A program made the position numbers and the translations under genes. From NCBI GenBank assembly GCA_964291675.2, contig OZ219866.1, positions 64,001 to 128,000 of the forward strand: a stretch of DNA of 64,000 nt, read 5' to 3'. Positions 40,442 through 55,805 of the stretch are shown piece after piece (the stretch's first letter is position 1; each line of letters opens with the position of its first letter). The DNA comes from Alphaproteobacteria bacterium. Its GTDB lineage: Bacteria; Pseudomonadota; Alphaproteobacteria; MPNO01. Under the pieces are notes generated by a model. The model was not told the origin of the DNA. It searched no databases and was given only the letters and a program-made list of their open reading frames with translations.

Positions 40442-40750
40442 TCACCCGGCGAACCGGCGCAGATGGCTCGGCGGCGTCGCCTTGAGACGCAGCACGAAGT
40501 CCGGCAGAAACCAGTAGAGCGCGTAGCGCGCGATGTTGGCCCCGCCGCCGCGCTTCATCCGGCGCAGCAGCAGCCAGCCCCCGACGCCGGCAATGAGCCC
40601 CGCCACGAACTGGTTCGCGGCCAGCCCGAGCAGGGCCGGGCCCATCAGCGCCGCCGCCTCGTCGACGGTCCAGAACAGCCAGCGCTCCGGATCGTCGAGC
40701 CGGCGGGGAATGACATGGCGGGCGGTGTCGTTCATCGCACGCCCCGTCAC
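40442..40750 (-). CDS. traL: TraL
   Basis: IPRRLDDPERWLFWTVDE, LYWFLP, PPSHLRRF. Confidence 0.92.
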   Translation of the reverse strand: MTGRAMNDTARHVIPRRLDDPERWLFWTVDEAAALMGPALLGLAANQFVAGLIAGVGGWLLLRRMKRGGGANIARYALYWFLPDFVLRLKATPPSHLRRFAG

Positions 40751-41061
40751 ACGATCGCCGTGCCGACCAGGCCGGTGACGATGCCGACGCCCGCGCCCGC
40801 GGCGATGCCGACGCCGACCGCGCCCATCAGCTGCATCGCGTTGAAGCGCAGCACCGAACCGACCAGCGCGGCGCCGACGGCGAGCGCCGCGGCGAGCTGG
40901 CCGCCGGTGCCGCCGACGATGTTCTCCACCGTGTCCAGCGGCGCGCCGAAGGTCGTGTCGGTGGTCGCCAGCGCCGCGTCCGCGCCGGCCAGCACCGCAA
41001 GCGCCGCGAGCGCCGCCGCCCCGAGGGCCGCGCGCATCCGTCCCCGCGCCCGGCCCCTCAT
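40747..41061 (-). CDS. traA: F-type pilin precursor
   Basis: Signal peptide, ATTDTTF, two hydrophobic helices; directly upstream of traL. Confidence 0.8.
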   Translation of the reverse strand: MRGRARGRMRAALGAAALAALAVLAGADAALATTDTTFGAPLDTVENIVGGTGGQLAAALAVGAALVGSVLRFNAMQLMGAVGVGIAAGAGVGIVTGLVGTAIV

Positions 41062-41339
41062 CGCTCCGCTCTCCCCGGCTCGGAATCCTGCCCTCCAGGT
41101 TCGGGGGCCGGGGCGGGCGCCGGCCCGGGCCGCGGACCCGAGCCGTCGTCCGAGGTCGAACGCCGCCGCCGGGTCTTCGACCAGTGGTCGAGGTCCTCGG
41201 CCAGGTAGCGCACCGCCGTGCCGAACAGGTGGTACACCGGCCCGCCGCCCGTCACCCGGTAGCGGTCGAGCGTGCGCGCCGACAGGCCGAGATGCTCCGC
41301 CGCCCGGCGCGTCGACAGGTACTTGCTCCCGTCCGCCAT
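41058..41339 (-). CDS. AlpA/Xis-like HTH protein (RdfS-like recombination directionality factor)
   Basis: YLSTRRAAEHLGLSARTLDRYRVTGGGP...VRY...DLDHW...RSTSD resembles RdfS; AAGGAG RBS. Confidence 0.85.
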   Translation of the reverse strand: MADGSKYLSTRRAAEHLGLSARTLDRYRVTGGGPVYHLFGTAVRYLAEDLDHWSKTRRRRSTSDDGSGPRPGPAPAPAPEPGGQDSEPGRAER

Positions 41340-41896
41340 CTCCGTCTCCTTCTCCGAACTCCCCGGCGCCGCGCGGTCGCGGGCGCATGTGCGGGGCCAT
41401 CCAAGCGAAGACGGGCGCGCGGCGGCAGGGAGAAAAACAGGGCCGGAAATTCTCCCCCCGGCAGGCGGCGCCTCACGGCGCCTCCCGCCGTCTGACGGTG
41501 CCTGACGTGCGAATCCGCCAACTCGCCGCCTGCCGTGTCTGACCGCGCGATCGCGGGACGGACGGGCCGATACGCGCGAATCGGCGGACCGGCAACAAAC
41601 GGCCGGTCGCCCGGATTGCAGAGTGCCCGGTCCGAACCGGGCGGTGGGTCAGAGGTTGGCGATTCCGGTCCGGGCGGCACCTCGCGTGCCGGCCCGCCGG
41701 GGAACGGCGGACTCGGCATCGGGCGCCGACCGGACGCCGGCGCTCACCCGCCCGGACGGCGTTTCCCGATCGTTGCCGTCAAGGTGCGGCTTGCGGGCAT
41801 CGGTGGCCGCAAGATCGAGAACCCGTGGTGAAGCCGGTGAGAATCGGCAGCCGCCGAGACGGGCGCAATGGCTCCGCGCGGTGCGGCGCGAGACGA

Positions 41897-42633
41897 TCAG
41901 CCGCCGTCCCGCCGCTTCCGCTCGATCGCGCTCGCCTTGTCCAGCCGGTAGCGGACCCGGCCGCGCAACCAGTCGCTCGTCTTCCAGTGCTTCTCGACCT
42001 CGTCGAGGCCCCAATACGCGATCGCGATCTCGCGCTGCGACGCCACCTCCGCCCGGTTCAGCGCCAACACCATCAGCAGTTCCCGTTCCTCGCCCACCGA
42101 ACCCGCCCTTGCCGAGGGGCCGGACCCCCGGAGACGCTCCACAGATCCATCAGCCGGGCGATCTCAATCGGTAGTTCCAGCCCATAGTCGTGGTAGAGCC
42201 GGAGGCCGCCGCCGGCGAGCAGCGGACCCTCCTTCGTCACCAGGATCTGCACCGCCCGCCCGTCCTGCTCGATCTTGACGATCAGGGTCCCGTCGAGAAG
42301 CCGCAGCCCGTCGATGCGCGCGCCCGCATCCGCAAGCATCGGCAGGAACGGCCGCGCCTTCGACGACCCCTCGCCCTCCAGCGTTGGCTCGCCGGCCAGA
42401 AACGGCGAGGCCGGGCCGTCGCGCGCGAACGGGTTCTCCCACGCCGCGATCTGCCAGGGGTCGCGCGCCGCAAGGTCCGCTGCCGACTGGACGCGCACCG
42501 GAAAGGCGGTCTCCTTCTCATACGCCGGGGACTCAGAGTGCGCCTCGAACGCCTCCTGGTACGTCCGCAGGTTGCGCAGCAGCTTCCAGATGCGCGTGTC
42601 GCCGCCCGCCGCCGGCGCGCCCCCGCGCGCCAT
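41897..42633 (-). CDS. FseA-like activator (DUF6499 + DUF2285), split by a -1 frameshift near 42100
   Basis: N-terminal WKLLRNLRTY resembles DUF6499 WEFLRRN..Y; second frame ASQREIAIAYWG..V...W..SDWLR.RVR is the DUF2285 HTH; upstream of the RdfS-like gene. Confidence 0.7.
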
Positions 42634-42636
42634 GCC

Positions 42637-45600
42637 CTACCAGCGCGCCGTGAGGCCGAACCCGATGCGGTGCTCGGGCACGTCGCCGGCACCGTCGCGC
42701 CGCACCGCGTCGAGATGGAGCTCGAAGCCCCCGCCCCCCGCCGGGGCGAGCCGCCAGCCCAGGCGCAGCTCGCGCGCCGTGTCCGACAGCCCCATCCCGA
42801 CATGCGGCGTGCCCGTGAAGCCGCCGCCGAACAGCGCGATGCCGTAGCCCATCTCCGCGTCGAGCCGGCTCGACAGGGGCGCGTCGTCGTTCGCGGCCAG
42901 CCCGGACGCGTCCGGCAGCATCCACAGACGCTCCGAGCCGCCCGGGTCCGCGCCCCAGGACGGCGTGAGCGAGGCGGAGAGGCCGCGCCCGGCGGCGCCC
43001 GGCACCAGCCTGAGCGACCCCGACACGCCCCATTCGTCGTAGCCGCCCTCGGCATGCGCCGCGAGACCGTGCACCTTCAGCGCCATGTCGAGGCCCCGCG
43101 ACGGGTCCGCGTAGCCGAGGCCGGCCCCGAGCTCGAAGCCCGTCCCGGTCTCCGCGTCGCCCCCGTCATGGCGCAGCCCCAGCTCCACCGACGGCGTCAG
43201 CGCCGCGCCGCCCGCGAGCGCGAACGTCCGCGAGCCGTCGAGCACCGCCCGCAGCCGGCTCGCCTCGGCCCGCGCCGCCGCGAGGTTGCCCGCCTCCGGG
43301 GTCGAGACCGAGGCCGACTCCGTCCGCACCCAGAACGCGTCCGCCTTGAGCGCGAGCGCGAACCCGCCGGCTTGCGCCGGCGTCACGAGGTCGCCCCGCA
43401 CCCCCATCGCCGCCAGCGTCATCGAGAGGTCCGCGCCATAGCGCTCCGCCGTGGCGCCGTCGAGGTCGAGGGTGAGGCGCCCGGAGCCCGTCCCCGCGAG
43501 ACCCCACGCCGAGACCCGCTCCGAGAGCGCGACCCGCGCATAGGGCAGCATCGTCGTCACCGCGCTTCCCATGACATAGCTCCGGCCCGCGCCCCGCGCC
43601 GTGCCTTCGCCCAGGCTGTGGGTCATCGCGAACCCGGTCAGCAGACGGCCCCGCTCGTAGTCCATGCCCATCGAGCCGGTCGCGGTCTCGCCGCTCAAGC
43701 TGAGCCCCGGACCGGCGCTGGAGAACCGCGACACCGAGGCGCCCTGGCCCCAGCCCGTCCACTGCGACCCCGCGCCGCTCCCGAGCACCGCCCGGAACGA
43801 GGTCCCCATCAGCAACTCGCGCCCGCTCATCGTCCGTGAGGCGTCCCCGGACGGCTCACCGGACCACGACAGCCAGTCCGCGCCGCCGCGGCCGCCCGCC
43901 GGTGCCGGCGGCAGGCCGGACCCGGAGCCGTCGAGCGACAGGCGGTGCCCGCCCAGCGTGAAGTGCGAGCCCGCATCGCGCGGCGTCTCCAGCCGCGCCG
44001 TCACCGCCGCCACCGCGTCCGCCGCCGCCGCGCGCCCGAACCGCGTCAGCCAGTCCTGCTGCACGGGTCGGAGTTCACGATGGTGCCGGTCGCCTCGCCG
44101 TCGGCGATCGCCGCGCCCTTCGCCTTGCTCAAGCGCAGCGTGAAGGTCTCCGTGCCCTCGTCGTGCGCGTCGTCGAGCACCGGCACCGAGACCGTCTTCG
44201 CCGTCTCGCCCGCCGCGAAGGTGAGCGTTCCAGAGGCCTTGCTGTAGTCCTTGCCCGCCTTCGCCGTGCCGTTCTTCGTCCGGTAGCGCACCGTCACCTC
44301 ATCCGACGCGGCGCGCGAGAGCGTCACCGCGAAGTCGAGCGTCGCGCCCGCGCCCTCCTGCGCGCTGGCGTCCGCCACCGAGAGCCCGGGCGGTCCCTGC
44401 ACGGTGTGGGTCAGCGCGCTCCCGAGCTTGCGCCCGTCCGCGGTACAGATGGCCCCCGCGGCCGCGCAGTCCGCCGTCGCCGGCAGCGCCACCGTCACCG
44501 GCCCGTGCGAGGAAGGCTTCACCGTGAGCGCCCACCGGTCGCCGCGCCGGCCCACCTGCCGCACACGCTCCAGCGTCCCGCCCGTCACCCGGAACGCCGC
44601 CGCATCGGCGTTGCCCGCGACCGGGGCCGAGAACGCCACGCGCAGCGAGAACTTCCCCTTGCCACGGTGCTCCGACGGCGCCGCCTCGAAGCGCGCCGTC
44701 AGCGGCGCCAGTGCCTGCCGCGCCGCCGTCGCGTTGGTCACCGCCCGCCCCGAGATCCGCGCCACGTCGCCCCGGGGGCCGCGCAGCCTGCCCGGCCCCG
44801 AAGGCGGCAGGTAGTCCATCGTCACCGCATCGCCCGCGCTCACCGCCGGGCTCAGCGCCAGCGTCACCGTCCGACCGCTCACCGCCACCGACGAGACCGC
44901 GTGCTCGGCCCGCGTCGACTTCACCGAGAAGGCGCTGCCCGGCGGCACCGCCGAGGCGTCCAGGTCCGCGTCGAACGCCAGCGTCAGCGCCGCCCCGTCG
45001 ACCCGCGCCGACGACACGCCGGGCGGCGCCGACTTCTCGGGCGGGTTGCCCTGCTGCCCCGACGGCCCCCCCGGCGTGCCGGCAGTCGTCGTCACCGTCG
45101 TCTTGTAAGCCTCAATGTCCGGCTTGCCCTTCGGCCCGAGCACCAGCACCCGCACTTCGTACTCGGTGCTGTGACGGAGACCCGGCAGCGTCACCCGTGG
45201 GTGCGCCGCATTCGTCGAGTGCTCCTTGCTACCCCACCAGAGGGTATTGCCCTTGTAGCGCCACTCGATGCGATAGGCGCAGTGCTCGTGCGCGTTCGCC
45301 GCCCGCCACGTCACCTCCAGCGACGTCCGCTCGGCCAACGTGCCGTGTTGGTCCGTGTACCGGGTCAGCCCTCCCTTCGTCACCTTGAAGTCCGTGAGTC
45401 TCAGGCCGTAGATGAACTTGGTTGCCGTCAGGCGCAACGACACTCGCTGCCGGTCCTTCCAGCCCAGCCCGGTCCCCGCCCAATAAGCGCTATTACCCGA
45501 CGGGATTATGTCGTCGTAGGCAAACGGAACGCCATCCACCAACAGCGTCAGCCCGGCAAGTTTACTCCTGGCGTAAGCGCCAGAAATTCCCGTGAACCGA

Positions 45601-45986
45601 ATGGAAAAATCGCCGTTTGCTGAGGTCCAATAGAGGGCTTCTACGGTGAATGTGGTGCCTCCATGCGTGAACTCGTGGTCCGTGAGGGCAACCGAGCAGT
45701 CGTCTTGACTGGAGGCAGAGTCGTCGCAACCGTAGACGCCGAAGTCCCGGTCCACCGTCAGCGTCGTGGACCAGAGGGTCTGCGCCTGGGCCGGCGCGGC
45801 GGCGAACAGGGAGAGCGCGCCGAGCAGCAGAGCGAGGACGGGCAGGAGAAGGGCGAGGCGGGCGCGCCCGCCGCGCGGGTCAGGCCGGGAGCGGTCCCCG
45901 GGCGGCGTCGGTCCCGACGACGGACACCGGGACGGGGCGGAAGCGGCCGATCGGTGCGCGCCGGCCTCGCGCCGGGCGCACGTCAT
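42637..45986 (-). CDS. Autotransporter-type adhesin (Fn3, SwmB-like, Calx-beta, beta-barrel); -1 frameshift near 44064
   Basis: Signal peptide ending APAQA; GLRHSTEYEVRV; VDGAALTLAFD; LSVADASAQEG..LDFAVTL; WLTRFGR linker; barrel ending GFGLTARW. Confidence 0.85.
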
Positions 45987-45989
45987 GCC

Positions 45990-46370
45990 GCTGGGCCGCT
46001 GGGCCGCTGGGCCGCTGGGCCGCTGGGCCGCTGGGCCGCTGGGCCGCTGGGCCGCTGGGCCGCTGGGCCGCTGGGCCGCTGGGCCGCTGGGCCGCTGGGC
46101 CGCTGGGCCGCTGGGCCGCTGGGCCGCTGGGCCGCTGGGCCGCTGGGCCGCTGGGCCGCTGGGCCGCTGGGCCGCTGGGCCGCTGGCCGCTGGGCCGCTG
46201 GGCCGCTGGGCCGCTGGGCCGCTGGGCCGCTGGGCCGCTGGGGCTGGGCCGCTGGGCCGCTGGGCCGCTGGGCCGCTGGGCCGCTGGGCCGCTGGGCCGC
46301 TGGGCCGCTGGGCCGCTGGGCCGCTGGGCCGCTGGGCCGCTGGGCCGCTGGGCCGCTGGGCCGCTGGGCC
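45990..46370. repeat. Octamer simple sequence repeat (GCTGGGCC) x48
   Basis: 381 bp = 46 perfect units, one 7-mer (46182) and one 6-mer (46237). Confidence 0.97.
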
Positions 46371-46372
46371 TA

Positions 46373-46381
46373 ATTATACCA
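46373..46381 (-). promoter_or_regulatory. Extended -10 element TGGTATAAT facing the repeat and adhesin
   Basis: Perfect TGnTATAAT in GC-rich DNA; TTGACT lies 20 bp upstream, a non-optimal spacing. Confidence 0.5.
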
Positions 46382-46566
46382 CCGGGGGACCCTGGCGAAG
46401 TCAACAGAAAACGCATGTGTGATCCACCCATCGAACCCTCCGCTCGCATGCTCAACGCCCCCCGTTGCACCCCGCTCGGGCCGCCGGACCGTTCCGACCG
46501 GGCCGGCCGCATCGCGGCGACCGGCCGGCTCCAACCCGAACCATAAGACAGTTGGCTGAAATCGTT

Positions 46567-46584
46567 CCTATCAATGCTGATAGG
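46567..46584. promoter_or_regulatory. Palindromic operator candidate
   Basis: CCTATCA-ATGC-TGATAGG in the AT-rich spacer between divergent genes. Confidence 0.45.
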
Positions 46585-46856
46585 TTTTGGTAAAAAATTT
46601 TGCGCTAATGTCTCGCGGCCCGCCGGCGCCCGCCTTGCCGCCGAATCGCCGCCATGCTCTTTGTCCCCCAGCAAACCCGCCACGAGTTGAACTTGCCGCC
46701 GCCAGTTTCGAGAATGGACACACCCGGTAGGGTCAAGTCGCGACGAATCGCCGTCGCCGGACGCCCGCATGTCGCAGGGGCGCCGGTCGCCCGGCCCGAC
46801 GCGGCGACCGAGCCTGCGCAGCCGACGAACGGAAACACCGCGCCGGGGGGAACGGC

Positions 46857-48008
46857 TTGAGCGAGCGCGACGCCTTCGACGCCATCCTGGCCGCCCTGCA
46901 CGAGGCGGCCCTCGACGACGCAAGCTGGCCGGCCGCCAGCGGGCTGGTCGACGAAGCCTGCGGGATCAAGGGCAACCTGCTGACCCATGGCGCGGGCGCG
47001 TCCCCCGACGACCACGTCGTCTACCTGCACCGCATCTGCTTCCGCGGCGAGCGCTGGCCGGACGCCGAGCGCGGCTATTTCGAGGAGTACTTCGCGCAGG
47101 ACGAGCGCGTGCCGCGCCTGCGGGCGCTGCCCGACAGCCGCCTGGTCCCCGCCGCCGAGCTCTTCACCGACGAGGAGAAGAAGACGTCGGCGGTCTGGAA
47201 CGAGGCGCTGCCGATCATCGGGATGCAGGACGGGCTGACCGTGCGCCTGGACGGCCCCGGCGGGTCGCGCATCTTCTGGAGCCTCGCCGACCCCGCCGAC
47301 GGGAACGGCTGGCCGTCCGCGCGGATCCGCACGGTCGAGCGTCTGCTCCCGCACCTGCGCCAGTTCGTGCGGGTCCGCAAGGCGCTGGCCGACGCCGACG
47401 GCCTGAACGCGTCGCTTGCGGCGCTGCTCGACAGCACCGCCGCCGGGATCCTCCAGCTCGACCGGCGCAGGCGGATCGTGGCGGCGAACGACCGCGCCCT
47501 CGACCTGCTCAGGGAGCAGGACGGGCTCCTCGACGAGGACGGCTTCCTGCACGCCCCCGCGTCGGCCGACGACCACCGCCTCCAGCTTCTGCTTGCGCGG
47601 GCCCTGCCGCCACTCCCCGGCGCCGGCGCCGGCGGCTCGCTGGCGCTGACGCGCCCGGCCGGCTCGCTCCCGCTCGTGCTGCACGTCATCCCGCTCGGCC
47701 CGCGCGAGGACGGCATCTCGCCCGCGCTGGCCGCGGCGCTCGTCCTGGCGGTCGACCCGGGCGCCCGGCCGCCGGTCGATCCCGCGCTGGTCCAGGCGGC
47801 GCTCGACCTCTCGGCGGCGCAGAGCCGGGTGGCGGCGCTGCTGGCCGAGGGCAGGTCCGTGCGCGACATCGCCGTGGCGATCGGGCGCAGCGAGAACACC
47901 GTGCGCTGGCACATAAGGCGGATCTTCGAGAAGCTGCACATCACCCGGCTGGCGCAGCTGGTCCAGCTGGTGCGCTCGCTCGCCGACCCCGCGGCCGCCA
48001 ACTCGTGA
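46857..48008 (+). CDS. LuxR-family regulator with GAF-like/PAS sensor region
   Basis: IVAANDRA PAS-like motif; C-terminal LSAAQSRVAALLAEGRSVRDIA...TVRWHIRRIFEKL. Confidence 0.88.
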   Translation: MSERDAFDAILAALHEAALDDASWPAASGLVDEACGIKGNLLTHGAGASPDDHVVYLHRICFRGERWPDAERGYFEEYFAQDERVPRLRALPDSRLVPAAELFTDEEKKTSAVWNEALPIIGMQDGLTVRLDGPGGSRIFWSLADPADGNGWPSARIRTVERLLPHLRQFVRVRKALADADGLNASLAALLDSTAAGILQLDRRRRIVAANDRALDLLREQDGLLDEDGFLHAPASADDHRLQLLLARALPPLPGAGAGGSLALTRPAGSLPLVLHVIPLGPREDGISPALAAALVLAVDPGARPPVDPALVQAALDLSAAQSRVAALLAEGRSVRDIAVAIGRSENTVRWHIRRIFEKLHITRLAQLVQLVRSLADPAAANS

Positions 48009-54659: not shown

Positions 54660-55805
54660 ATGCCGAAGATCACCAAGCGCACCGTCGATGCCCTGAAGCC
54701 TCACGAGCGCGAGCGCGTCGTCTGGGACGACGACCTCAAGGGCTTCGGGGTGAGGGTCCATCCCTCCGGGCGGAAGGTCTTCATCGTCAAGACGCGCTTC
54801 GGCGGCAGAATCATCAAGATGACCATCGGGCCTTGCACGGCCGTTTCCGCCACGTATGCCCGTGTGCGGGCCGCAGAGATCATCACCGACGCGAGGGCCG
54901 GGAAGAACCCTGCGGGGCGCAGGTCCAAGGCGCCCACCATGCGTGACCTGGGGAAACGGTTCCTCAAGGACTATGTGCCCGATCACTGCAAGGCGAGCAC
55001 GGCGGAGGAGTACCGCCGTTCGGTCGAGCTGTTCATCAACCCCCGGATCGGCAACCGCCGGGTGCCGGACGTTCAACGGAGCGACATTGCGACGCTGCAT
55101 CACGATTTGCGGGACACCCCCTATCAGGCCAACCGGACGCTGGGGGTCTTGTCGAAGATGATGAACCTCGCGGAGCTGTGGGAGCTCCGTCCCGACGGCT
55201 CGAACCCGTGCCGTCATGTGAAGAGGTTCAAGGAGGAGAAGCGCGAACGCTTCTTGTCGGACGAGGAGTACCAGCGCCTGGGCGCGGCGCTGAAAGAGAT
55301 CGAGCAGGAGCGCTCTGAGACGGCCTCCGCCATCGCGGCGGTCCGTCTGCTGATGCTGACCGGCTGCCGTCTGTCGGAGATCCAGAAGCTGCGGTGGGAG
55401 CATGTCGATCTGGACGCCGGCGAGCTCCGGCTCACCGATACTAAGACTGGCGCCAAGGTGGTGCATCTCGGCGACCCGGCGATCGCGGTGCTGCGGGGGA
55501 TCGACAGGAAGGAAGACAACCCGTGGGTGATCGCGGGCCGCAAGCCGGGGAGTCACCTAACTGACCTTCAACATCCCTGGCGACGCATCCGCAAGCGCGC
55601 CGGACTCGACGACGTGCGCATCCACGATCTGCGTCACAGCTTTGCCAGCGGCGGGCTGCTGGTCGGCGAGGGTCTGCCCATGATCGGCAAGCTCCTCGGG
55701 CACACCCAGGTCCAGACCACCGCCCGCTACGCGCACCTCGCCAACGATCCCGTCAAGTCGGCCGCGAACCGTATCGCCAGCCGTATCGCCGAGGTGGCGG
55801 GGTGA
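54660..55805 (+). CDS. Tyrosine integrase with N-terminal arm-binding domain
   Basis: WDDDLKGFGVRV.PSG.K, TGCRLSEI, HDLRHSFAS, LLGH, TTARYAH. Confidence 0.95.
   Translation: MPKITKRTVDALKPHERERVVWDDDLKGFGVRVHPSGRKVFIVKTRFGGRIIKMTIGPCTAVSATYARVRAAEIITDARAGKNPAGRRSKAPTMRDLGKRFLKDYVPDHCKASTAEEYRRSVELFINPRIGNRRVPDVQRSDIATLHHDLRDTPYQANRTLGVLSKMMNLAELWELRPDGSNPCRHVKRFKEEKRERFLSDEEYQRLGAALKEIEQERSETASAIAAVRLLMLTGCRLSEIQKLRWEHVDLDAGELRLTDTKTGAKVVHLGDPAIAVLRGIDRKEDNPWVIAGRKPGSHLTDLQHPWRRIRKRAGLDDVRIHDLRHSFASGGLLVGEGLPMIGKLLGHTQVQTTARYAHLANDPVKSAANRIASRIAEVAG

Follow-up and report, generated by a model that had tools for sequence, protein, structure and literature searches.

What is a tract of 48 near-perfect octamers doing directly in front of the start codon of a large adhesin-like protein in an alphaproteobacterial genome? 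The locus lies on the minus strand of a 64,000-nucleotide stretch of contig OZ219866.1 (positions 64,001 to 128,000 of the contig; the whole stretch is called the window here, and coordinates are window positions unless a contig or locus is named), in a host genome of 4.8 Mb on two contigs (C1 and C2) with about 69% G+C. The simple sequence repeat (SSR) at 45987-46370 most likely acts on adhesion as a stochastic switch, of the on/off or the dimmer kind. We favor, over a pure length rheostat in the 5' untranslated region (5'-UTR), a reading in which the array belongs to a multi-locus contingency system and repeat number would set where an upstream leader open reading frame (ORF) ends relative to the adhesin start; judging from the sequence comparisons below, we give this frame switch about an even chance.

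The layout of the window locus (Table 1) had been proposed from the letters of the window by an earlier sequence-only reading, and its main elements stood up to analysis. Tandem Repeats Finder (TRF) placed 48.4 copies of GGCCCAGC between a TGGTATAAT box and the adhesin ATG at 45986, which directly abuts the array end. On the other side of the array, the extended -10-like TGgTATAAT (46381-46373) is 2 nucleotides (nt) away, and farther upstream a Shine-Dalgarno (SD) sequence of the GGAGG type precedes an ATG (46431-46429) from which a leader ORF reads through the repeat out of frame with the adhesin. The distance between this ATG and the adhesin ATG (45986-45984) is 445 nt, and 445 mod 3 is 1; the leader thus overruns the adhesin start and ends at a TGA (45882-45880) 105-107 nt into the adhesin ORF, within a conserved CCTGA. 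A gain of one unit or a loss of two would fuse the leader to the adhesin (frame 0), and a loss of one or a gain of two would produce frame 2, with the leader stop on the adhesin start. The adhesin ATG had also been said to lack a ribosome-binding site. No GGAGG-like SD does precede it, but this is not a defect, since an SD-less ATGA is the norm at the related sites described below.

The window array contains two imperfect units, one short by 2 nt and one by 1 nt when read on the minus strand. In a genome-wide TRF run, the two top short-period arrays were the window array and another one built of the same octamer. That such a tract is prone to slippage had been part of the earlier proposal, and the copy numbers point the same way. 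At one relative's locus, metagenomic assemblies whose upstream flanks are identical at 400/400 positions carry seven heptamers (L073) or nine (L077 and L091), and three paralogues within the host genome have 1.5, 29.4 and 48.4 units, a 30-fold difference. The window holds a near-perfect short-unit array ahead of a secreted protein with fn3 and Calx-beta domains, which is the arrangement of a contingency-locus array.

The arrangement recurs well beyond the window. We found 44 sites in the host genome, in relatives and in sponge metagenomes, with 1.5 to 48 repeat copies and a common order: an SD-ATG leader ORF, a TTGACA/TATAAT-like pair, a repeat with a 5-, 7- or 8-nt unit, an invariant ATGA, and the leader segment and signal peptide of a large fn3, Calx-beta or cadherin-like protein. 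The second host array, at 3.06 Mb on C2, consists of 29.4 perfect units followed by the ATGAC-TGCGCCCGGCGC leader and has the TATAAT, and an element on C1 has the same boxes and leader with about 1.5 units ahead of an intact 1743-codon ORF. One related genome has about 11 octamers, and another has two sites with 2 and 9 heptamers (GGCCAGC). A pattern scan of species-representative genomes returned 33 matches, 15 of which (14 loci) proved on reading to be true module sites. The titles of the metagenome-assembled genomes (MAGs) concerned name Boseongicola, Defluviicoccus, Paracoccaceae (3), Rhodospirillaceae, Candidatus Poriferihabitaceae (2), a gammaproteobacterium, Vicinamibacteria, Dehalococcoidia and Binatia. 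Mobile DNA binned into the wrong genome may make this range look wider than it is, but two of the records have chromosome scale. Another 26 sites came from a scan of metagenomes, including examples with CCCACGG and with a GCCGA pentamer at the same position. An even draw of 400 other genomes of the class contained no instance of the pattern, save for one chance-like match without the leader, and the module is not general to the class. The unit variants that occupy the same place are GGCCCAGC, GGCCAGC, CCCACGG, GCCGA/AGCCG, GAAGCCG and CCGG(A/G)TCG, all of them 5, 7 or 8 nt long.

A set of 23 loci was assembled through the gene that follows the adhesin, an FseA-like regulator: 12 kb upstream of 20 FseA-like loci, together with the window, the C1 element and the closest relative. 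Short-period 5' arrays stand at 18 of these 23 adhesin/FseA-like loci of the genus, with 6.1-48.4 copies at 97-100% identity (15 of the 18 are perfect) and with mutually unrelated units of the GGCCCAGC, GGCCAGC, AGCCG, GAAGCCG or CCGG(A/G)TCG family; the five loci without an array are L134, L145, L147, L148 and the C1 element with its 1.5 units. The closest relative, whose regulator is 77% identical, has (AGCCG) x 16.8 within its own SD-ATG leader ORF. The CCGG(A/G)TCG family copies the full layout, with TTGACA, TATAAT, array, ATGAG(T/C), and CCGCCTGA at +53. This second module family (L130-L144, in genomes G009 and G019) has 10.8-39.8 perfect copies, leader ORFs that begin MTMTDK or MIGSMQK, and ATGAG starts, and it was present at 10/10 G019 loci and 4/4 G009 loci examined. 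The host genome itself has a further array, (GAAGCCG) x 6.1, at the 5' end of another adhesin/FseA-like pair (G000:C2:14151-14193; L149:6652-6694), where the array lies in an SD-ATG ORF in frame with the adhesin.

Two short motifs frame the adhesin start. The SD-less ATGA is present at 37/37 sites of the first type, collected from own-genome searches and from two pattern scans that required ATGAC. The best 120 listed homologues of the adhesin C-terminal domain were found independently of the pattern, and 31 of them start M-x-C-[AVT], where x is T (12), R (9), N (4), S (3), K (2) or M (1). All of these residues are encodable by codons that start with A, which fits conservation of ATGA; R and S are ambiguous at the protein level, and a check of the DNA of second-codon variants added one case, ATGAAG. 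The second motif is CCTGA (codons for P-D/E of the leader), which is conserved 35-107 nt past the adhesin ATG in both module families and supplies the stop of the overrun frame.

The leader ORF is itself a conserved feature of the module. It is open to the adhesin ATG in 16/17 genome loci, where shuffled sequence would give about 4.0 (the null was uninformative for one locus of the 17), and a strong SD sits 4-9 nt before the leader ATG at the matching position in 16/17. Within one leader-peptide family, pairwise differences at codon positions 1, 2 and 3 are 0.200, 0.207 and 0.314, and the family includes an in-frame 6-nt indel. We classed a leader as coupled when its stop falls on the ATGA, overrun when it stops at the CCTGA, and fused when it is in frame with the adhesin. 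The 31 deduplicated DNA loci divide into 15 coupled, 10 overrun and 6 fused. Arrays of fewer than 8 units are coupled in 10 cases, overrun in none and fused in 4, and arrays of at least 8 units are coupled in 5, overrun in 10 and fused in 2 (Mann-Whitney on copy number, overrun vs rest, p = 0.004). In the second module family 7 of 8 loci are overrun, with the stop at +53, despite their 10.8-39.8 copies. The leader and adhesin ATGs of its members L136 and L143 are separated by distances that differ by 129 nt, or 16 units and 1 nt more; the stretch from TATAAT to the first full unit differs too and appears to supply the extra base. By these sequence counts, the leader-ORF frames relative to the adhesin start are non-random.

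We infer from this pattern that the leader ORF would be translated and that its frame would control adhesin output. The octamer array would then be a slippage-prone contingency tract, and the module around it a conserved 5' control unit, spread by horizontal transfer, of large secreted adhesin-like proteins. Because the unit is never a multiple of three, each unit gained or lost would shift the leader ORF among three relations to the adhesin start. The leader might stop on the start, the ATGA overlap being the classical coupling arrangement; it might overrun the start and stop at the conserved CCTGA, the present state of the window; or it might fuse to the adhesin. Since the adhesin has no SD of its own, its translation would depend on repeat number, and as there are several such loci per genome, a population would display varying combinations of adhesins. 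The FseA-like regulator downstream in the window would probably be carried on the adhesin transcript, to judge by the gene arrangement.

The sequence-only reading had the fused frame as the ON state, and on this point it was not sustained. Fusion is the rarest frame in 31 DNA loci (6), in 33 independently found homologues (2) and in eight second-family loci (1), and it would bury the signal peptide behind at least 100 extra residues. We regard fusion as the least likely ON state.

Several observations weigh against the frame switch. The TTGACA/TATAAT pair lies inside the leader ORF and is conserved as DNA, which argues for a promoter whose transcript would be without the leader start. The frame statistics rest on related, non-independent loci, and the 8-unit threshold was set post hoc; long arrays may in addition be mis-assembled. 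The families prefer different frames (short arrays of the first family are coupled, the second family is overrun), and no single ON state emerges. The codon-position evidence for translation of the leader is weak, a 1.5-fold excess at position 3, and a hairpin predicted after the ATG is without covariation support. The A at +4 could serve initiation efficiency in place of a TGA stop, and ATGAC was built into two of the scans. The window adhesin is frame-broken, and its array is the longest and slightly imperfect, so the local copy may be decaying.

The conserved boxes bring in the alternative of a promoter-proximal, 5'-UTR length rheostat of the hmw1A/hmw2A type. In that scheme TTGACT-N20-TGgTATAAT would be the adhesin promoter, transcription would begin in the first repeat unit, the length of the untranslated repeat would tune mRNA level or translation, and the upstream SD-ATG would be irrelevant. 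Nearly all module sites keep near-consensus -35 and -10 hexamers against a background of 70% G+C, and TTGAC(A/G/T) is kept 16-25 nt upstream of the -10-like box at most of them. Depending on the locus, TATAAT falls in the frame for Y-N or in that for I-I, and is therefore conserved as DNA and not as peptide. At the genome pattern sites the array starts 0-6 nt after the -10 box and spans the entire distance to the ATG. There is also a precedent in Haemophilus influenzae, where HMW1A expression is reported to be inversely proportional to the length of the transcribed 5'-UTR heptamer tract (PMC12721329). The spacing of the boxes speaks against such a promoter: most alphaproteobacterial sites have 20-23 nt between them and few have 16-17 nt, and a consensus scan of 40900-47000 called no promoter, the spacer at the window locus being 20 nt. 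A transcript from the TATAAT box would have no SD, and the rheostat predicts neither the conserved strong upstream SD-ATG (16/17 loci) nor the non-random frames nor the restriction to units of 5, 7 and 8 nt. Shuffled versions of the repeat RNA fold more stably than the RNA itself (minimum free energy -215.1 kcal/mol vs -252.7 for the mean of the shuffles, z = +6.5), and the repeat is unpaired in the centroid; this comparison covers the repeat itself, as a region complementary to it was not searched for, and a long hairpin like that of hmw may still form. We consider the rheostat unlikely, though a real contender.

Other ways in which the repeat or its surroundings might act were also considered. 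An unusual structure in the repeat RNA was rejected on the fold just given. The GC-rich hairpin potential after the adhesin ATG pairs in 94.4% of cells across 36 sequences, but 0 of 9-12 pairs is compensatory, the same as in shuffles, and a conserved hairpin was rejected. A G-quadruplex or i-motif was rejected as a conserved feature as well: GGG recurs at 8-nt intervals on the plus strand of the octamer array, but the heptamer, pentamer and CCGG(A/G)TCG variants are without G3 runs. Rfam gave no match at E up to 1 in 41000-47000. The scan of 40900-47000 found two terminator-like sites, 41462-41442 and 46567-46584, both outside the leader region, and none between 45880 and 46441. The second of these coincides with a palindrome, CCTATCA-GCAT-TGATAGG (46567-46584), in an AT-rich patch just upstream of the leader ORF; it may be an operator, as may a 13-nt inverted repeat before the leader SD of the C1 copy (L010:11845-11880).

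Table 1. Features of the adhesin/FseA-like locus and its mobile element, in window positions.
Feature	Position	Strand	Remarks
SD-like GGAGGG of leader ORF	46436..46441	-	Read from sequence
Leader ORF (uORF), 183 codons	45880..46431	-	Crosses the -35/-10-like boxes and the entire repeat
-35-like TTGACT	46399..46404	-	Read from sequence; TTGAC(A/G/T) conserved
Extended -10-like TGgTATAAT	46373..46381	-	Ends 2 nt before array
SSR array (GGCCCAGC) x 48.4	45987..46370	-	TRF: period 8, 98% matches, 1% indels
GC-rich hairpin potential, +6 to +33 of adhesin ORF	45954..45981	-	Predicted
Adhesin part 1, 646 aa	44046..45986	-	SD-less ATGA start, long Arg-rich leader, fn3/SWM_repeat/Calx-beta domains
Frame break between adhesin parts	44046..44064	-	19-nt overlap of two ORFs
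Adhesin part 2, 475 aa, ends ...ARW	42637..44064	-	Conserved C-terminal domain
FseA-like regulator, N part, 186 aa	42073..42633	-	DUF6499-like 'IWKLLRNL'; starts 3 nt past adhesin stop
FseA-like regulator, C part, DUF2285/RovC-type helix-turn-helix (HTH)	41897..42142	-	-1 (+2) frame; ATG 42073 overlaps TGA of N part
Inverted repeat GGGAGAA-N15-TTCTCCC	41428..41456		Perfect 7-nt arms; about 89 nt upstream of HTH_17 ATG
RdfS-like small HTH_17/excisionase-like gene	41058..41339	-	Pfam HTH_17 E 5.9e-6, 26.9 bits vs cut-off 27
traL, first recognizable gene of F-type type IV secretion system (T4SS) block	40442..40750	-	Pfam TraL 1.9e-30
Tyrosine integrase	54660-55805		In the window

The adhesin had been described as a single ORF. 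Its SD-less start and its junction with the repeat are as described, but the coding sequence is divided between two ORFs in different frames (44046-45986 and 42637-44064). Part 1 matches Pfam Calx-beta (5.5e-21), SWM_repeat (3.2e-16) and fn3 (2.7e-07) and has, by eye, a signal-peptide-like segment ending AQAQ. Part 2 corresponds to the conserved C-terminus of more than 1000 large proteins; the best 120 listed longer homologues are all single ORFs of 842-2199 aa that cover 96-100% of it. It had no match in Pfam or NCBIfam and nothing relevant in a PDB sequence search. In the ESM Atlas, 27 of 30 feature matches fell in clusters with one common family set, and PF03797 autotransporter clusters take the first three places (score 0.96). 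By this model-based comparison part 2 is probably a divergent autotransporter beta-domain. A type Va autotransporter has PF03797 on the passenger polypeptide; here the Pfam match is absent, and the polypeptide is split in the window and single in the best 120 homologues. A structural route was abandoned, as the single-sequence AlphaFold2 model was unusable (predicted local distance difference test score, pLDDT, 32). The adhesin of the closest relative has 2482 codons and a 399-nt tandem duplication at 98% identity (L129:10179-10978).

The adhesin is thus broken or mis-assembled in the window at 44046-44064, and the frame break may have disabled the adhesin/regulator unit there. This raises the further alternative that the module is a local relic, non-functional at the window locus, with the adhesin a pseudogene and the tract expanded without constraint. 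The split of an ORF that is single in the best 120 longer homologues is what a relic would show, and at 48.4 units the array is the longest of those examined, against at most 39.8 elsewhere. It is also among only three of the 18 5' arrays with less than a 100% TRF match (98%, with the two imperfect units), and the adhesin behind the other long host array (29.4 units) is decayed and sits in the rearranged remnant of an element. Against decay, the break may stem from mis-assembly or belong to a minority allele, as some contigs from three sequencing runs have a 1-nt length variant at the break; moreover the leader ORF, both boxes and the ATGA are intact, and the frame of the leader ORF is the one most often found with long arrays. 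We find a local relic rather improbable. The remnant with the second long array extends over C2:3048000-3067000 (L009) and has a traC fragment on the opposite strand.

The gene behind the adhesin is the second subject of the locus. As the sequence-only reading had it, the two are separated by 3 nt, the adhesin ending at TAG 42639-42637 and the regulator starting at ATG 42633-42631. The N part of the regulator had no match in Pfam or NCBIfam, DUF6499 included. By eye, its 'IWKLLRNL' and the 'AWSFIRAS' of the C1 paralogue resemble the AWEFLRRN motif quoted in PMC10359603. The N part has 107 homologues; of 74 with a query coverage of at least 90%, 61 measure 176-186 aa. Three of six fetched sequences end ARNG(N/S)C. 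The C part reaches Pfam PF10074 RovC_DNA-bd with 19.8 bits (E 1.2e-3), below the cut-off of 26.4, and in phmmer matches RovC in the PDB (6xz5) with E 4.4e-5 over 46 residues. The +2/-1 relation of the two parts holds in 14/15 loci, down to 35-40% identity, and no conserved slippery heptamer X_XXY_YYZ was found for the -1 frame. The two-frame regulator may reflect a distinct programmed -1 frameshift or a conserved two-protein arrangement, and on its sequence it is FseA-like only in part.

Homologues of the 186-aa ORF were surveyed at 30 fetched loci in 9 of 20 family genomes, with up to 10 FseA-like loci per genome. The adhesin C-terminal domain is directly upstream of the FseA-like gene on the same strand in 24 of the 30, and with the pairing so conserved the adhesin is not a sporadic insertion, which the sequence-only reading had named as a refutation of its model. 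The 3-nt spacing itself is not kept at other loci: about 65 nt lie between the two genes in the C1 paralogue and about 0-160 nt elsewhere. An HTH_17 gene follows just downstream in 8 of the 30 loci, within the 1.5-kb flank examined. The RdfS-like gene of the window lies after the FseA-like gene, as proposed, and ahead of a traA-like ORF and traL, but a gap of about 560 nt separates it from the regulator, and NCBIfam excisionase models match it weakly (E 4.7e-4 and 0.022). The inverted repeat in this gap has a geometry resembling the FseA box, a pair of inverted hexamers with 15-16 bp between them (PMC10359603). The inverted repeat overlaps a weak terminator-like site and is not conserved in the C1 paralogue. 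The HTH_17 gene probably has a regulated promoter of its own, as the gap and the inverted repeat suggest.

The element around these genes is conjugative. An F-type conjugation block in the window encodes TraL, a TrwC relaxase, TrwB, TraH and TraN. A pilin-like ORF lies between traL and the HTH_17 gene, and TrwC, TrwB, TraH and TraN are farther downstream. The window also encodes an SSB, a Toprim primase-like gene and an Sbno-type helicase. With T4SS, relaxase, coupling protein and integrase together in one block, the element has the composition of an integrative and conjugative element (ICE). Window 1-44365 is collinear with a second F-type element on C1 (C1:218932-262433, L010) at 78-90% identity, in which a tyrosine recombinase gene is divergent to the adhesin module. 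In the window, a LuxR-family (GerE) regulator with a PAS domain (46857-48008, plus strand) is divergent from the module and is followed by a P450, an IS66 transposase and the integrase.

The sequence-only reading had combined these neighbors into a single switch, in which fusion would be ON and coupling or polarity would co-switch the FseA-like activator, ICE excision and conjugation, replacing quorum sensing. Its frame arithmetic is correct, and the 3-nt gap, the order of adhesin and FseA-like gene in 24/30 loci with gaps of about 0-160 nt, the F-type T4SS element with TrwC relaxase and integrase, and the FseA-box-like inverted repeat upstream of the HTH_17 gene are all as it would expect; FseA activates the rdfS promoter in ICEMlSymR7A, according to PMC10359603. 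Weighing the other way, fusion is the rarest frame and would put the signal peptide more than 170 residues from the N-terminus, and the window adhesin is split upstream of the regulator. The identity with FseA is partial (a sub-threshold DUF2285, no DUF6499 match, and a -1 and not a +1 frame split), and HTH_17 is behind the pair in only 8/30 loci within the 1.5-kb flank. Among the RNA contigs listed, which are fragmentary metagenome contigs, none bridges 42633-42640, and with the divergent LuxR-family PAS regulator next to the module other control is possible. We consider this model very improbable, and the co-switch of conjugation with the adhesin is conjecture. A broader version of the idea, which we hold to be quite improbable, would make the adhesin and the DUF2285 regulator one phase-variable operon, in which leader slippage gates both the adhesin and an activator of the excisionase-like and F-type conjugation genes. 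Rare "sticky donor" cells would arise without quorum sensing, and the leader-repeat cassette would be a portable, cross-phylum control unit of the mobile elements of sponge microbiomes.

The known cases of repeat-driven phase variation come mainly from host-adapted pathogens with small genomes. In the present case an entire family of adhesin loci in high-G+C, sponge-associated bacteria has repeats whose units are not multiples of three, and these are placed in a leader ORF and not in the gene or in a plain promoter; many of the loci lie on mobile elements. A search of the literature on SSR phase variation, with octanucleotide repeats, sponge symbionts and uORF or translational coupling included, yielded no earlier description of such a module, subscription journals and supplements being outside its scope. 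If the frame of the leader ORF controls adhesin translation, it would be a new wiring of a contingency locus and a tractable system, with three discrete states and conserved ATGA and CCTGA stops. The pairing of adhesin and DUF2285 regulator ties surface variation to a type of regulator known for control of ICE transfer, and co-regulation of adhesion and gene transfer in symbiont communities becomes a testable question.

The window feature is probably a variant of SSR contingency control. It stands nearest to the hmw 5'-UTR repeat and to the leader-peptide repeat of pil1, and it is multi-locus like opa. The opa genes of Neisseria are many paralogous adhesin loci, each with a 5' repeat that is not a multiple of three, and give combinatorial phase variation; the CTCTT repeats lie within the signal-peptide coding region of the adhesin itself. 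The loci described here share the multi-locus adhesin repeats, but the repeat precedes the adhesin ATG.

The regulator is comparable with FseA/QseM of ICEMlSymR7A (PMC10359603), where a two-frame DUF2285-type HTH regulator likewise stands upstream of a small HTH_17/RdfS-like gene and conjugation genes. FseA uses a +1 programmed frameshift to join its ORFs, whereas the frame relation here is -1/+2 and at a different place in the protein, and there is no Pfam DUF6499 match. Unlike the regulator of ICEMlSymR7A, the one in the window is behind an adhesin gene and not driven by TraR quorum sensing.

In hmw1A/hmw2A, as here, a tandem repeat (7 nt in hmw; 5, 7 or 8 nt in the module) separates promoter elements from the start codon of a large secreted adhesin, and there are paralogous loci whose copy number varies between isolates. 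The hmw heptamer repeat is untranslated and acts via a long hairpin with a G-rich partner and RNase III (PMC12721329). In the module the repeat is inside a conserved SD-ATG leader ORF with non-random frames, its RNA is less stable than shuffles, the tract reaches 48 units, and the hosts are high-G+C environmental symbionts. The pil1 locus of Streptococcus gallolyticus is a parallel in having a non-multiple-of-three repeat, (GCAGA)n, inside the upstream leader ORF of an adhesive structure; repeat number alters the leader end and so controls the structure, longer leader peptides destabilizing an intrinsic terminator (PMC3894217). No premature terminator was found in 45880-46441, and the leader ORF of the module overlaps the adhesin start through its ATGA or CCTGA stops, which, unlike pil1, points to translational coupling or occlusion.

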